Program-made: the position numbers and the translations under genes
NCBI RefSeq assembly: GCF_016026235.1
Contig: NZ_CP065613.1
DNA: 64,000 nucleotides
From: Escherichia coli
GTDB taxonomy: Bacteria > Pseudomonadota > Gammaproteobacteria > Enterobacterales > Enterobacteriaceae
Direction: 5' to 3' (one strand)
The notes under the pieces: generated by a model
The model's input: only the letters and a program-made list of their open reading frames with translations
Databases searched by the model: none
Told to the model about the DNA's origin: nothing
Shown here: one piece after another, positions 1,859 through 14,109 of the stretch
How positions within the stretch are numbered: the first letter of the stretch is position 1
Layout: the number at the start of each line of letters is the position of its first letter

Positions 1859-4076
1859 AACGTCCAACCGCCGCTTTAGGGCGTTTCTTCGCACCAGCAT
1901 TCACCGGACGAGATTGCGTAGACGACGCTTTTTTTGCCGTAGCAGGCGTCTGACGCTGGGTCGCCATCGGCGTATGTTTCGTCAACGCCGGACGGGTATT
2001 GCGGTTCTGGCGACGAGCCTCACGCATCTCTTCAATGGTTGGCGCAGGCACTAAGCAATCGCGACGGCTGCCAATCAGATGCTTTTTGCCCATCGCTTCC
2101 AGCGCCTGGCGGATTAACGGCCAGTTTGCCGGATCGTGGTAACGCAACAACGCTTTATGCAAACGACGCTGTTTGTCGCCCTTCGGTACGAAGACGTCTT
2201 CACTCTTATAACCAATCTTCGCCAGCGGGTTTTTCCCGGTGTAATACATGGTGGTCGAGTTAGCCAGTGGCGATGGGTAGAAGTTCTGTACCTGGTCGAG
2301 ACGGAAACGATGCTTTTTCAGCCACAGCGCCAGATTCACCATATCTTCATCACGCGTACCGGGGTGCGCAGAGATGAAATACGGGATCAGATACTGCTCT
2401 TTACCTGCCTGTTTCGAGTAAGTATCGAACAGCTCTTTAAAGCGGTCATAGCTGCCCATGCCCGGCTTCATCATCTTCGATAACGGCCCTTCTTCGGTAT
2501 GTTCCGGGGCAATCTTCAGATAACCGCCGACGTGATGGGTCGCCAGTTCTTTGATATAGCGCGGATCTTCCACGGCGATGTCATAACGCACACCAGAGGC
2601 AATCAGGATCTTTTTAATGCCTTTCAGATCACGCGCACGGCGATAGAGGTTGATCGTTGGTTCGTGGTTCGTGTCCATGTGCGGACAAATATCCGGATAA
2701 ACGCACGACAAACGACGGCAGGTTTGTTCAGCGCGTGGCGATTTGCAGCGCAACATATACATGTTGGCAGTTGGCCCACCGAGATCGGAAATTACGCCCG
2801 TAAAACCTGGAACGGTGTCGCGGATCGCTTCGATCTCATTAATGATCGAATCTTCGGAACGGCTCTGAATAATGCGCCCTTCGTGCTCGGTGATAGAACA
2901 GAAAGAGCAGCCGCCAAAGCAGCCGCGCATAATGTTGACCGAAAAACGGATCATTTCGTAAGCCGGAATACGGGCATTGCCATAGGCCGGATGTGGCACG
3001 CGCTTGTATGGCAGCGCAAAAACGCTGTCCATCTCTTCGGTAGAAAGCGGAATAGCAGGCGGGTTGATCCACACATAGCGGTCGCCGTGTTTTTGCATCA
3101 ATGCGCGGGCACAGCCTGGGTTAGTTTCGTGGTGCAGAATACGCGAAGCATGGGCGTACAGCACTTTATCGCCCTTCACTTTCTCGAAAGAAGGCAGCAA
3201 CACGTAGGTTTTTTCCCACGGTTTCGGGCGCGGTGGCTGCACGGTTACGGCTTTGGCTTCCTGCTTTTTCGGTGCCACCGGTTTGTTATCCGCGCACGGC
3301 AAATCTTCACCATACGGATGCGGGATTGGGTCGATTTTTCCAGGGGTATCAAGACGGGTGGAATCCACGCCGCTCCAGCCTGGCAACGCCTCTTTTACGA
3401 TAATCGCAGTATTACGCACATCGCGGATTTCGCTAATTGGCTCGCCCATCGCCAGACGATGCGCCACCTCCACCAGCGGACGCTCACCGTTACCGAACAT
3501 CAGCATGTCGGCTTTCGAATCCACCAGCACGGAACGGCGCACGGTATCGGACCAGTAATCATAATGCGCGGTACGGCGCAGACTAGCCTCAATACCACCG
3601 AGGATCACCGGTACATCTTTCCACGCCTCTTTACAACGCTGGGTATAAACCAGTGTGGCGCGATCCGGGCGCTTACCCGCGACGTTATCCGGCGTGTAGG
3701 CATCGTCATGACGTAAACGGCGATCGGCGGTATAACGGTTGATCATCGAATCCATGTTGCCAGCAGTAACACCGAAAAACAGATTCGGTTTACCCAGACG
3801 CATGAAATCGTCTTTGCTGCTCCAGTCTGGCTGAGCGATGATCCCAACGCGAAAGCCCTGCGCTTCCAGCATACGACCGCAAATCGCCATCCCGAAGCTT
3901 GGGTGATCGACATACGCGTCGCCAGTAACCAAAATGATGTCGCAGCTATCCCAGCCAAGTTGATCCATCTCTTCACGAGACATCGGCAAAAACGGTGCCG
4001 GTCCAAAACAGGCGGCCCAGTACTGCGGCCATGAGAACAGGTCGCGATCCGGTTGGATCAGGGAGATAGAGCTCAT
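1857..4076 (-). CDS. ygiQ: radical SAM family protein YgiQ (UPF0313)
   Basis: 739-aa ORF with CFGGCSFCS radical-SAM cysteine motif. Confidence 0.9.
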
Positions 4077-6643: not shown

Positions 6644-8902
6644 TTACTCTTCGCTATCACCGCTGCTGGCACGGCGAGGAGAGTCGATCTCAACACGATC
6701 GATACGCTGCAAACCGCGCATCAACGTACCGCGGCGTCCACGTTCGCCAGTGACTTTCTGTAACTCTTCCGGGCGCAGTTTAATTTTGCGTTTCCCAACA
6801 TGAATGGTCAGCGTGCTTTGCGGCGGCAGAACGTACAATTGCGCCAGACCATCTTCTCCACGCGCGGCTTCTGCCGATGGAATGTTGATAATCTTGTTGC
6901 CTTTGCCCTTCGACAGCTGCGGCAGATCACTTACCGGGAACATCAACATACGGCCTGCCTGAGTGATTGCCAGCAGCATATCGGAAGCATCTTCAATCAC
7001 CACCGGCGGCATAACATGGGCATTTTCCGGTAAGGTGATCAAAGCCTTACCTGCACGGTTACGCGCCACCAGATCGTTAAAGGTGCAGACGAAACCGTAA
7101 CCCGCATCGGAAGCCATCAGCAGTTTCTGATCGTCGCTTTCCATCAGCATATGGTCAACGGTCGCCCCAGGCGGCAACGTTAATTTGCCGGTGAGTGGTT
7201 CGCCCTGACCACGCGCCGACGGCAGCGTAATCGGGTCGATGGCATAGCTACGACCGGTGGAATCAACAAACACTACCGGTTGGTTGCTCTTACCTTTCAC
7301 CGCCGCTTTGAAGCTATCACCCGCTTTATAATTCAGGCCCGGCGCGTCGATATCATGGCCTTTAGCGCTGCGTACCCAGCCCATCTGCGACAGCACAATG
7401 GTGACAGGTTCAGACGGCAGCATGTCGTGCTCGCTCATCGCTTTCGCTTCTTCGCGTTCCTGCAACGGCGAACGACGATCGTCACCGTAGGCTTGCGCGT
7501 CTGCCTGCAGTTCTTTCTTCAGCAGGTTATTCATTTTACGCTCGGAAGCCAAAATGCCCTGCAACTGGTCGCGCTCTTTTTCCAGCTCACTCTGCTCACC
7601 GCGAATCTTCATCTCTTCCAGTTTGGCAAGATGACGCAGTTTCAGTTCGAGGATCGCTTCCGCCTGGGTTTCCGTAAGGCCAAACCGCGACATCAGCGCC
7701 GGTTTCGGTTCATCTTCGTTACGAATGATCTCAATCACTTCGTCGATGTTGAGAAACGCCACCAGCAAACCTTCCAGGATATGCAGGCGCTTGAGGACTT
7801 TCTCCAGACGATAGTTCAGTCGGCGGCGCACGGTATCGCGACGGAACACCAGCCATTCGGAGAGGATTTCCAGCAGGTTTTTCACCGCCGGACGACCATC
7901 CAGACCGATCATATTGAGGTTAATGCGATAGCTCTTTTCCAGATCGGTGGTAGCGAAGAGGTGGTTCATCACCTGATCCATATCCACGCGGTTGGAACGC
8001 GGCACAATCACCAGACGGGTCGGGTTCTCGTGGTCAGATTCATCGCGCAGATCGTCAACCATCGGCAGCTTTTTGTTGCGCATTTGCGCAGCAATTTGCT
8101 CCAGTACGCGCGCACCTGAAACCTGATGCGGTAATGCGCTAATAACCACCGCGCCATCTTCTTTCTTCCACACCGCGCGCATACGCACTGAACCACGTCC
8201 GTTCTCGTAGATTTTACGAATCTCGGCGCGCGAAGTGATAATTTCCGCTTCAGTCGGATAATCCGGCCCCTGCACGATATCCAGCAGCTGATCGAGCGTG
8301 GTTTTCGGCTGGTCGATTAATGCGATTGCCGCCTGAGCTACTTCACGCAGGTTATGCGGTGGAATATCGGTCGCCATGCCGACGGCAATACCGGTGGTGC
8401 CGTTAAGCAAAATGTTTGGCAGACGGGCAGGCAGCATTTTCGGCTCCTGCAAAGTGCCGTCGAAGTTTGGCACCCAGTCAGCCGTCCCCTGCCCCAGCTC
8501 GCTCAATAGCAGCTCGGAATATTTCGACAACCGGGATTCGGTGTAACGCATTGCCGCGAACGATTTCGGATCGTCCGGCGCGCCCCAGTTCCCCTGACCA
8601 TCAACCAGCGGATAACGGTAAGAGAACGGCTGCGCCATCAGGACCATCGCTTCATAACAGGCGCTATCGCCGTGCGGATGGTATTTACCCAGTACGTCAC
8701 CGACGGTACGGGCCGATTTTTTAAATTTGGCGCTGGCATTCAGGCCCAGTTCAGACATCGCATACACAATGCGGCGCTGAACAGGTTTCAGACCATCACC
8801 AATAAACGGCAACGCACGGTCCATGATCACGTACATGGAGTAGTTTAAGTAGGCGTTTTCCGTAAATTCATGTAGCGCAAGGCGCTCTGCCATATCGCTC
8901 AT
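6644..8902 (-). CDS. parC: DNA topoisomerase IV subunit A
   Basis: 752-aa ORF, GyrA-like N-terminal domain (…AMRYTE…); synteny. Confidence 0.95.
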
Positions 8903-9447
8903 TAATTCTGATTCCTCAACTTATTCGCCAGCCTTCAAAGGGGCAATATTGCCGGAGATACTACATTATCTGCCGCGTCGAGTCACAGGAGATCAGCGTG
9001 AATAGCGCCGCCGGACGTGCTCCGACGGCGATAAAGGCATCAATGTGCCTTGATATACAACTCTTTGCTGTAGACTTGATCGGCATAGAGGGCAGCACAA
9101 GGTTGCGCCCATGCCACACCACTCGGCATGGGGGTCCGCTCCGGGCGATTCGAGAAGTTGAGGTTATGCGAGTCCAGGGAAGCCTAAAGCATCAAAGTAG
9201 TCGACTGTAAGTATACGGTTCAGCCCAGTTTAGCTGTGTCTCCACCAGTGCCCCGCGCCTCCTGCCATAAGTGCGGCTTGCTCATGGATACCCCCGAGAC
9301 GGCTTACGGCGCACCGGATAATAAATTTCGCGTATACATGGTATTCCTTACCGGAGAAATTATAAGCCCAACAACAATACGCCTGTGGCATTGTTCGCTC
9401 AAACTTATCGCGAGTGATTTGGCTCACACTCCGGTAAAGATTCCCCA

Positions 9448-9930
9448 TCACGCTAACGGCACATAAACATCCGTTTCCAGTCGCTGCTCTGTCACCCCTT
9501 CGGCAAGATTGGTGTAGTGAAACAGAATCGGTGCTTTACGCATTTTCTCGCCGCTTGCAGGCAGCCAGTGGCGAATAATGCCCCATATCGTGTGTGAAAT
9601 ATCGTCCAGCTCGCCAACGTGGCGGGCCACGGCATAACGTCCACCGGTAAGTTCACCATTGCTCACACCATAACGATTATCGGGAATCGGTTCGCTAACG
9701 CTGCCGCAGATATCAAAGCGAAACGCTTCCGGTGCGGTGGTGGCAGGGTCGTCCCAGGCGACGCCAAAAGTCTGGCTTTGGTTAACAGGAGAAAGCCCCG
9801 TCTCTTTACGCCACATGATAAATTTCGCCACACTGTAGTTGAGCAACTCAGGGCTACAGCGGTGCGGCAACATCGCCACAGGGATTGATGGGAAATCGAT
9901 AATGTTTACATCCAGTGTCAGGTTTGTCAT
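9448..9930 (-). CDS. ygiV: GyrI-like/AraC-effector-domain transcriptional regulator YgiV
   Basis: 160-aa ORF; synteny next to ygiW. Confidence 0.85.
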   Translation of the reverse strand: MTNLTLDVNIIDFPSIPVAMLPHRCSPELLNYSVAKFIMWRKETGLSPVNQSQTFGVAWDDPATTAPEAFRFDICGSVSEPIPDNRYGVSNGELTGGRYAVARHVGELDDISHTIWGIIRHWLPASGEKMRKAPILFHYTNLAEGVTEQRLETDVYVPLA

Positions 9931-9982
9931 TTTGCCTCCCTGCGAAATTATTCCCGGGAACGCGTCCCGGGAGCGGTAACAA

Positions 9983-10375
9983 TTACGGATTTACTTTGCG
10001 GATCTGTTTGACGTCAATTTCAACAGAATTCCAGTCTTTATCGACTTCACCCTGAATCTCAACCGTATCTTTCGGCGTCACCGTCACACCGTTCCAGCGT
10101 TTGTGGTCGATATCAACATTGATAGTACCGCTGGCATCTTTAAACACGTAGAGATCGTCAGAGATGCGTTCAACGATATTGCCGCGCAGGGTTACCCAGG
10201 TGTCGTCACGCAGGGATTTTGCGCTTTCTACGGTCGTTACGCTGCCGTTCGGCCCCTGGAATCCTCCGGCCTGACTTTGCGTTGCCGATGGGCCAGAAAA
10301 ACCGCCCTGCTCTGCTGCCATCACCGGTGCGCTGCACAGGGCCATTACTGCGATTACTGCTGCGAATTTTTTCAT
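9983..10375 (-). CDS. ygiW: BOF (YgiW/YdeI) family periplasmic stress protein
   Basis: ORF 9983..10432; likely true start at internal ATG (MKKFAAVIAVMALCSAPVMA signal peptide) giving 130 aa. Confidence 0.88.
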   Translation of the reverse strand: MKKFAAVIAVMALCSAPVMAAEQGGFSGPSATQSQAGGFQGPNGSVTTVESAKSLRDDTWVTLRGNIVERISDDLYVFKDASGTINVDIDHKRWNGVTVTPKDTVEIQGEVDKDWNSVEIDVKQIRKVNP

Positions 10376-10526
10376 GTTTATTACTCCCTTTAATGTCTGT
10401 TTCCGAGCATTTAACAAGATAGTCCTTAACAACTTCTTAAGGGAAAAAAATAAAATTTAGTGCTGTACAGAGCGCGTTACAACACGGTTTACTGGCAGCA
10501 AATACGGTTATCGCAGGGATGAAAAA

Positions 10527-12916: not shown

Positions 12917-13627
12917 TTACTCATTAATCAATTTTTTGATATGTTCTCTAATCTCTAACAACCTCATACCATAAGAGATGAATTTATAATCATCTGTATC
13001 ACGCGCAGGCAAATTATTAATTAAATAAATAAAAAACCCCAAATCTCGTTCAACACCACGATTATATCTAATACCAGCCATAATATACTGCTCATTCGTC
13101 ATATACAGTGTTGCCGAAGAGGGATAATCAAAAAGGGCAAGATCTCTTAAATGAGTAGCAGCAATTTGAAACGTAAAATCATCTTCCATTAGGCATGTCG
13201 CTAACTCTAACTGATTTCTGGTAGTTAATTCTGAAGGGTCAAGACCTAGAGTAATCGCTGCGGTTCGTATTTGTATACCCATTGAGCCAAATGATGTTTT
13301 ATTTTCAGGCATATCTAACAATCCAATCATTCTTTTTGTTTCATATATCTGAAACTTATAATTTTCAGGCATACCTCCTGACTCAATCCAGGCCACACCG
13401 CCCAGTAACTCTGGACGAATCCCAGCGGCATATGCATGTTTAATTATTTTGTCCCTATTATATTGTACATATGCATCTTTATAAGCATTTAAATAATATA
13501 CTCCCGAACGGCGACGCGAATCATTTTTTCCTAACTTCCAGAGTAAAACGTCCATTTCATCCCATTTACGGAACTTAGTTTGTGGAATTGTACAATAGCT
13601 ATTTTTTATAGTGAGATCGCTTTTCAT
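12917..13627 (-). CDS. putative Hcp-associated effector with lytic-transglycosylase/lysozyme-like (GH23-like) motifs
   Basis: ORF track gives 12917..13654 with a TTG first codon overlapping hcp; ATG at 13627 (MKSDLTIKN...) sits 2 nt after the hcp stop. Motifs AWIESGG, GSMGIQI and AGIRYNRG resemble the ES / G-x-Q / YN-G signature of SLT-type muramidases (e.g. MltE QQESGGNPNA...GLMQL). A+T-rich; no signal peptide. Confidence 0.55.
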   Translation of the reverse strand: MKSDLTIKNSYCTIPQTKFRKWDEMDVLLWKLGKNDSRRRSGVYYLNAYKDAYVQYNRDKIIKHAYAAGIRPELLGGVAWIESGGMPENYKFQIYETKRMIGLLDMPENKTSFGSMGIQIRTAAITLGLDPSELTTRNQLELATCLMEDDFTFQIAATHLRDLALFDYPSSATLYMTNEQYIMAGIRYNRGVERDLGFFIYLINNLPARDTDDYKFISYGMRLLEIREHIKKLINE

Positions 13628-13629
13628 AT

Positions 13630-14109
13630 TTAAAAAACCCTTTCTTCCCAACAACTATATGATTCCGTACTCGCGATATGGTGCTTCCATGTTATATTTT
13701 TATAATTAAGAACAATAACCTCTTCCGGTTGATTACCCGCATGTGTAATTGAGTGTGGATAACAAGTCAGAATATTCGATAAATGTGCCCCTTGCAATTC
13801 AATTGTGTAAAACCTTTCAATACAACCGCCAGAATTAATTCTATAAAAATTAAATATAGCTGATAACTCTTCATTTTCAGAAAGAGCAGCATTTAATAAA
13901 GGGGAGGATTTATCTATTGGCTTGTAAAATTTTATGGGGTGATGCACTACATTATATTCTCGACTTAAAGAATGGTCGAACTGCAAAACAAAAATTTCAT
14001 CCACATGATTTATTTGATATTTATTACCAATAGATGCATACGAACCACAGCCCTCAGAGATCAAACCTTGTGTTTTCCCTTTAATTGATAAGTATATGAT
14101 ATTTGACAT
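13630..14109 (-). CDS. hcp: type VI secretion system tube protein Hcp (TssD family), orphan copy
   Basis: 159-aa ORF; IYLSIKGKTQGLISEG, IDKSSPLL and YKNITWKH match conserved Hcp blocks; GGAG Shine-Dalgarno 9 nt upstream; A+T-rich. Confidence 0.8.
   Translation of the reverse strand: MSNIIYLSIKGKTQGLISEGCGSYASIGNKYQINHVDEIFVLQFDHSLSREYNVVHHPIKFYKPIDKSSPLLNAALSENEELSAIFNFYRINSGGCIERFYTIELQGAHLSNILTCYPHSITHAGNQPEEVIVLNYKNITWKHHIASTESYSCWEERVF

Follow-up and report, generated by a model that had tools for sequence, protein, structure and literature searches.

The window, by which is meant the whole stretch of 64,000 nucleotides of Escherichia coli DNA analysed here (contig NZ_CP065613.1), carries parC and ygiV as intact neighbours separated by 545 bp (8903-9447), the counterpart of a gap of 2775 bp in K-12 MG1655, so that ~2.2 kb of the K-12 sequence is missing between the two genes. 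The annotated order in MG1655 is plsC, parC, ygiS, mqsA, mqsR, ygiV, ygiW, qseB and qseC, and beyond ygiV the window continues with ygiW, qseB and qseC. Further along, just past ygiZ, there is a 245-aa ORF (12917-13654, minus strand), which is annotated as 'hypothetical protein' in the near-identical FDAARGOS_943 and is missing from that position in strain 536, where mdaB comes directly after qseC.

Between parC and ygiV, the only reading frames are short and overlapping, with lengths of 70 aa (plus strand), 73 aa (minus strand) and 76 aa (plus strand), and an Rfam scan of 8000-10500 gave zero matches at E<=1. An earlier, sequence-only reading of this DNA had put the spacing at about 545 bp, had described these ORFs of 70-76 aa on both strands, had placed ygiS and mqsA/mqsR between parC and ygiV in K-12, and had judged all three genes to be apparently absent from the locus. 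The spacing, the ORFs and the K-12 order were found as described, and the absence is borne out by alignment with K-12 and by tblastn over the 64-kb window. Alignment of 8903-9447 with K-12, which the same reading had proposed as the way to set the breakpoints, defines two replaced segments, 9076-9317 and 9441-9445 (Table 1). From 8403 to 9075, the window is collinear with K-12 up to the last 36 nt of ygiS, the intergenic part of this run (8903-9039) being 99.3-100% identical to K-12, 536 and XH990, and the sequence of the ygiV side runs from 9446 onward. The distribution of each segment was surveyed in 5426 complete RefSeq E. coli genomes and in five outgroup Escherichia lineages.

Table 1. 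Features of the parC-ygiV region, listed from left to right along the window
Feature	Position	Strand	Basis
parC (DNA topoisomerase IV subunit A), intact, left border	6644-8902	-	752-aa ORF; 100% identical to K-12 ParC (tblastn); annotated parC in matching genomes
parC-ygiS intergenic region, 137 bp, as in K-12	8903-9039		Collinear with K-12 L001 2975-3111
ygiS 3' remnant, nt 1573-1608 (last 11 codons and stop)	9040-9075	-	Aligns to K-12 3112-3147
IS609 right end, last 3 nt, CAA	9076-9078	-	Not ygiS; matches IS609 terminus
Group II intron, last 225 nt	9079-9303	-	91% identity to 3' end of pHum4b intron
Domain VI	9115-9082	-	Covariation fold, 8 copies; intron 3' end ...GCCGAT at 9079
Domain V, degenerate	9149-9118	-	Covariation fold, 8 copies
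Reverse transcriptase/maturase, final 46 codons	9301-9164	-	In-frame TAA at 9232-9230
IS609 left end, first 14 nt, CCGGTGCGCCGTAA	9304-9317	-	Identical in three independent IS609 copies
ygiS 5' remnant, nt 1-22, ATGTATACGCGAAATTTATTAT, ending in TTAT	9318-9339	-	100% identical to K-12 L001 4698-4719
ygiS upstream (promoter) region, kept, 101 bp	9340-9440	-	100% identical to K-12 L001 4720-4820
Empty mqsRA site, 5 bp (TTCCC on plus, GGGAA on minus)	9441-9445		K-12 junction comparison
ygiV, intact, right border	9448-9930	-	160-aa ORF; 99.4% identical to K-12 YgiV

The smaller of the two segments is the position of mqsRA. The 5 bp found here correspond in K-12 to a segment of 927 bp (L001 4821-5747) containing mqsA, mqsR and their promoter, and tblastn with K-12 MqsR and MqsA against the whole 64-kb window returned nothing better than E=1.6. 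Of the 5426 genomes, 3124 (58%) have the junction fragment 9330-9560 in one piece, at 90-100% identity and nearly always at 95% or more, and the genomes with this empty junction include the ygiS-intact strains 536, XH990 and O157. The 927-bp segment is carried by 2299 genomes, in every case at an identity of at least 99%, and zero copies of it were found on plasmids in these carrier genomes. For comparison, ygiS and the empty-site junction stand at 95-99% identity in many genomes. Carriers and empty junctions form essentially disjoint sets that together account for 5423 of the 5426 genomes, from which it follows that empty-site genomes have no K-12-type mqsRA elsewhere. The statement of the sequence-only reading that the strain lacks MqsRA thus holds for the locus and for the 64-kb window, and on these population counts the source strain is likely to lack the module genome-wide as well.

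An outgroup scan, in which YgiV was the query and one genome per species was taken, led to the five other Escherichia lineages. All five are without mqsRA: three of them, among which are E. albertii and E. whittamii, show the arrangement ygiV-ygiS-parC, and in the other two (MOD1-EC7003 and E1V33) ygiS is eroded. Moreover, the empty-site sequence including its GGGAA/GGGA motif can be aligned among 536, XH990, E. albertii, E. whittamii and the outgroups with an intact intergenic region, and the GGGAA motif is missing from K-12. It is very unlikely that mqsRA was ancestral and was precisely deleted in the strain studied here: loss of a toxin-antitoxin module is indeed possible, and K-12 shows no target-site duplication that would prove an insertion, but identical precise losses would be needed in each of the five outgroup lineages, and the same junction in outgroups, the high frequency and identity of the empty junction in E. 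coli, the near-uniformity of the segment in all 2299 carriers and the lack of any tblastn remnant of mqsRA in the 64-kb window speak against such a loss. The simplest reading of these comparisons is that mqsRA would have been inserted recently, in some E. coli only, and that the empty junction would be the ancestral Escherichia state, an identity of at least 99% in all carriers being the pattern of recent arrival and spread in the species. This reading agrees with the horizontal acquisition of chromosomal toxin-antitoxin modules in E. coli (PMC5120126), with the reported lack of MqsRA in some strains (PMC7232551), and with the listing of mqsA, mqsR and ygiS among the variable genes of the pan-genome (PMC11390585).

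The larger segment concerns ygiS, a gene for a periplasmic substrate-binding protein that is 1608 bp long when complete. Its interior, nt 23-1572 (1550 bp), is exchanged for 242 bp at 9076-9317 that have no counterpart in the K-12 locus, and no continuous ORF of ~535 codons exists between parC and ygiV. In tblastn with K-12 YgiS, the sole match within the 64-kb window comprises residues 523-535 at 9081-9043, of which the first ~1 codon falls in intron and CAA sequence outside ygiS, and from the ygiS start codon the fusion now encodes only an 11-aa peptide (MYTRNLLSGAP, then a stop).

Most of the 242-bp filler is the 3' end of a group II intron. When used as a query, the filler detects the scar locus in ~1360 chromosomes and, at ~83% identity, ~200 plasmid sites, some of which adjoin pseudogenes of group II intron reverse transcriptases. 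Searched against the plasmid collection, it aligns with ltrA-annotated DNA from Sinorhizobium, Polaromonas and Cupriavidus, and it is 91% identical to the E. coli plasmid pHum4b, whose intron is near full-length and frameshifted. In pHum4b and Polaromonas, the match is situated ~1.25 kb downstream of Rfam group-II-D1D4 matches, at the end of the reverse transcriptase/maturase ORF (the relatives L006 and L007 match group-II-D1D4-3 and group-II-D1D4-1). In the ORFs of these relatives, Pfam recognises RVT_1 and GIIM and no other domain, so the maturase is apparently without an endonuclease domain. Of the ORF, only the final 46 codons are left in the window, interrupted by an in-frame stop. Translated on the minus strand, they read SRLGGIHEQAALMAGGAGHWWRHS, stop, TGLNRILTVDYFDALGFPGLA, stop, and they match the Polaromonas LtrA, a protein of 456 aa, from residue 413 to residue 455 with 70% identity (E=6e-20). 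A Pfam search of this maturase fragment, which is too short for a match, gave none.

The 85 nt that follow the maturase stop codon hold domains V and VI. In the fold of eight copies, 90.6% of cells are paired versus 38-50% with partners slid, four pairs are compensatory, and the features that identify this end of a group II intron, a catalytic domain V hairpin (34 nt) and a bulged A in domain VI at 7-8 nt before a 3' end in AY, can be recognised. Domain V of the window has three pair-breaking substitutions, with one more broken stem than in the urinary isolate EcPNK004, which carries the same scar, and it is because of these three substitutions that the interval gives no Rfam match. The intron terminates in ...UAUGCCGAU, also read as ...CTATGCCGAT (9079), and its end is fixed at GAT because in a tandem of Polaromonas introns GAT is directly followed by the GTGCG of the next copy. 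Neither a 5' GUGYG nor domains I-IV are present in the remnant.

Several other explanations of this sequence were considered and rejected. The heptamer GTGCGCC (9314-9308, minus strand), with which the introns of pHum4b and Polaromonas also start, might be taken for an intron 5' end, but it is part of the left end of the insertion sequence IS609; for the same reason, a mini-intron with an internal deletion, or a product of two recombined introns, was dropped once the 14-mer at this position had been identified as that left end. Retrohoming of the intron straight into ygiS does not fit its 3' flank, which is CAA and not the TAT of ygiS, the homing site being an IS609-type hairpin ...GGAGGATGT followed by CAA. 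A GATCAA allele of ygiS, suggested by a megablast extension to 9081, proved to be a scoring tie, all alleles examined having GATTAT. In addition, the collected intron and IS loci contain no copy of the junction 20-mer, even with up to 5 mismatches allowed.

The two ends of the filler are those of IS609, for which cleavage has been described at TTAT (left end) and at TCAA (right end) (PMC6906374). Three independent copies were compared, in K-12 near ydcO, in Ec-042 near yedK and in DEC5A near yfeD. These intron-less copies start with TTAT/CCGGTGCGCCGTAAAACCCC and end with ...GGAGGATGTCAA, beyond which the flanks are unrelated, the right terminus shared by all three being ...GGATGTCAA. In the window, the 14-mer identical in the three copies occurs once, directly after TTAT, within a right-hand junction that reads ...AATTTATTAT/CCGGTGCGCCGTAA/GCCGTCTC..., in which ygiS nt 1-22 are followed by the IS609 left end (9317-9304) and this by the intron; the boundary between left end and intron, GTAA/GCCGTC, is approximate and not base-exact for want of a closer intron relative. 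The left-hand junction reads ...GCCGAT/CAA/GTCTACAGC..., in which GAT CAA/GTCTAC supplies the right-end TCAA with the last base of the intron as its T. CAA is assigned to the IS609 right terminus and not to ygiS because all ygiS alleles examined show TAT there. Between 9076 and 9317, neither subterminal hairpins nor tnpA or tnpB of IS609 are found, only this remnant. In intact ygiS alleles, TTAT occupies nt 1569-1572, directly before the GTCTAC of the retained 3' remnant; since TTAT thereby precedes both ygiS junctions, the lost segment nt 23-1572 runs from TTAT to TTAT.

The association of this intron with IS609 recurs elsewhere. A hairpin ending in ...GGAGGATGT precedes the intron in every context and lies downstream of the TnpB/InsQ gene where one is present, and in five of six other contexts with a visible flank CAA comes next after the intron 3' end, with unrelated sequence beyond it. 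In strain Z1323CEC0003, the DNA upstream of the intron is ~90% identical to an insQ element of 4891 E. coli genomes, including the K-12 copy adjoining ydcO, which is IS609. Fragments of related introns are common on E. coli plasmids, and the 242 bp might on this ground be regarded as plasmid filler caught in an unrelated, illegitimate deletion of ygiS, without any transposition of IS609 into the gene. This is very improbable, however, as both IS609 termini are present in the correct orientation (14 nt on the left, CAA on the right) and each lies exactly 3' of a ygiS TTAT, a coincidence that for the right-hand junction alone would be expected about 1 time in 256 by chance.

Taken as a whole, the 545-bp interval is very probably a non-functional mosaic with two separate histories, in which mqsRA was never present and ygiS was destroyed by an intron-carrying IS609. 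The sequence-only reading had offered an ancestral empty site or a deletion scar as alternatives, and each applies to one half, mqsRA being the empty site and ygiS the scar. Its finding of no recognisable MqsA, MqsR or periplasmic-binding-protein frame stands in that no mqsRA remnant exists, but it overlooked the two ends of ygiS and the 242 bp of IS609 and intron debris between them.

The ancestral state would have had ygiS and no mqsRA, and K-12-type strains would later have gained the 927-bp mqsR-mqsA segment in place of 5 bp. An IS609, a member of the IS200/IS605 family, that bore a group II intron just 3 nt short of its right end would have inserted after the TTAT at ygiS nt 19-22, and nt 23-1572 would then have been removed between two IS609 target sites. 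Either the transposase may have joined the right end to the second TTAT, ~1.5 kb downstream on the same single strand, in what would be the chemistry of normal integration but within one molecule, or a second IS609 copy at the TTAT of nt 1569-1572 may have recombined with the first; both routes yield the same product and cannot be separated here. A later internal deletion of ~3.3 kb would have left 14 nt, 225 nt and 3 nt. Because no intermediate allele, with a full IS609::intron in ygiS at nt 22 or nt 1572, was seen among the genomes surveyed, we can only infer the order of these events. No published description of transposase-mediated adjacent deletion by IS609 was found.

Without the IS hairpins, either transposon gene (tnpA or tnpB), domains I-IV of the intron or a functional domain V, the remnant is inert: it cannot transpose or splice, and ~25% of E. 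coli genomes would carry it as a neutral marker. It has the same junctions in the EcPNK004 haplotype, with a filler that is 4.5% divergent and flanks that are 3-6% divergent, and identical junctions around a drifted filler indicate a single old event. That the remnant is kept for a function, for instance as a small RNA or for readthrough from the ygiS promoter towards parC, is highly improbable. The ygiS promoter region is intact and is now aimed through the scar at parC, and the scar persists in a quarter of genomes, but no Rfam match exists and a scan of 8850-9500 for consensus promoters and terminators found no promoter-like site, the sole terminator-like match being a weak 5-bp stem (9391-9379) in the ygiS upstream region, outside the scar. 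Furthermore, the scar haplotypes differ in the filler at least as much as in flanking intergenic sequence, and domain V is more decayed in the lineage of the window than in EcPNK004, both of which point to neutral drift. As a separate observation, parC of EcPNK004 (L015 569-2827) is only ~94% identical to the alleles of K-12, 536 and the window, a divergence unusual for an E. coli core gene, and the segment may have been imported.

The full scar allele of the window occurs in 1369 of the 5426 genomes (~25%), and the ygiS interior in 4056, with a diversity of 95-100% that is considered normal. With 1370 genomes lacking ygiS and 1369 carrying the scar, one scar explains essentially all ygiS-less E. 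coli. It is next to impossible that the whole short interval is ancestral and that ygiS as well as mqsRA was inserted in the K-12 lineage, as common as the short allele is, for the window retains ygiS nt 1-22, nt 1573-1608 and the promoter region, E. albertii, E. whittamii and another lineage have an intact ygiS between ygiV and parC, and the diversity of ygiS over 4056 genomes is normal.

Lesions of other kinds are seen in ygiS elsewhere. MOD1-EC7003 and E1V33 have ygiS pseudogenes with several internal deletions (L008 6481-7062; L010 3689-4280), whose breakpoints differ from those of the window and which contain no IS609 or intron sequence. In E. coli O145:NM FWSEC0002 (H275), ygiS is split over two places, probably by an insertion, which would be another independent lesion.

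In comparison with the ygiS-mqsA-mqsR region of K-12, the window shares parC, the ygiS promoter, ygiV, ygiW and qseBC; it lacks mqsR, mqsA and the operator DNA of the type II MqsRA system, and its ygiS is down to 22 + 36 nt. The ygiS-positive, mqsRA-less haplotype represented by 536, XH990, O157:H7 and E. albertii has the same empty junction, XH990 being 100% identical to the window across 9330-9560, but keeps the full 1608-bp ygiS. Relative to IS609 (insP/insQ in K-12), the scar is alike in its left end 3' of TTAT and its (T)CAA right end, and its orientation fits single-strand 'peel-and-paste' insertion; it differs in that only 14 + 3 nt survive, hairpins and both genes being gone, and in that its ends flank a 1550-bp deletion of the target instead of a simple insertion. 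With the group II introns of pHum4b, the Z1323CEC0003 chromosome and Polaromonas sp. JS666 plasmid 2, the remnant has in common the maturase C-terminus, domains V/VI, the end ...GCCGAT and the position relative to an IS609-type right end, whereas domains I-IV and ~90% of the ORF are missing and an in-frame stop and domain V mutations are present.

Introns of this family always lie between ...GGAGGATGT and CAA, at a distance of 3 nt from the right end (TCAA) of IS609-like (TnpB/InsQ) elements, both in E. coli and in Polaromonas (L014 2001-3821, L007 2412-4217, L013 1501-1985 and the tandem in L006, besides 9076-9303 of the window), and the last T of the intron regenerates TCAA. In IS605-family elements, this position lies within the stretch from which the TnpB guide RNA is made. 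In the Polaromonas tandem (L006 1389-3220 and 3221-5103), the second intron follows directly after the domain VI hairpin and GAT of the first. The copy in pSLK172-1 (L013 1501-1985) is an ORF-less mini-intron of ~470 bp, composed of a 416-nt 5' part and a 63-nt 3' part, and is found among P1-type phage genes beside an IS609-type right-end hairpin without tnpB; about 30 plasmid matches show similar mini-introns, which are widespread on E. coli plasmids. No paper was found on IS609 together with group II introns or on the anatomy of the scar. A tentative and rather unlikely interpretation is that the scar is the trace of a composite, an IS609-family transposon with a group II intron 3 nt from TCAA, for which the domain VI hairpin may itself be a target, a possibility suggested by the Polaromonas tandem, and that the TTAT-to-TTAT deletion was a natural, transposase-catalysed adjacent deletion on single-stranded DNA. 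If so, the composite would be to group II introns what the 'IStrons' are to group I.

The components of the interval are all of known kinds, namely a toxin-antitoxin module of the accessory genome, the deletion of a gene by an IS and the decayed remains of a retroelement, and the short allele is common and ordinary strain variation, the intron in the right end of IS609 being a detail and not a new class. The scar can be used as a lineage marker, and it is a clean case of an element of the IS200/IS605 family deleting a gene between two tetranucleotide targets. For this locus, K-12 is not the default, as 58% of the complete E. coli genomes are without mqsRA and in 25% ygiS is gone as well. YgiS has a reported role in deoxycholate uptake, and protection against bile by MqsR through cleavage of ygiS mRNA has been claimed and disputed (both summarised in PMC6918082); that many natural strains have neither mqsRA nor ygiS bears on these claims. 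The independent decay of ygiS in two other Escherichia lineages hints that its loss may be tolerated or favoured and, taken with the reported role in deoxycholate uptake, is compatible with a loss that would be tolerated or useful in the gut.
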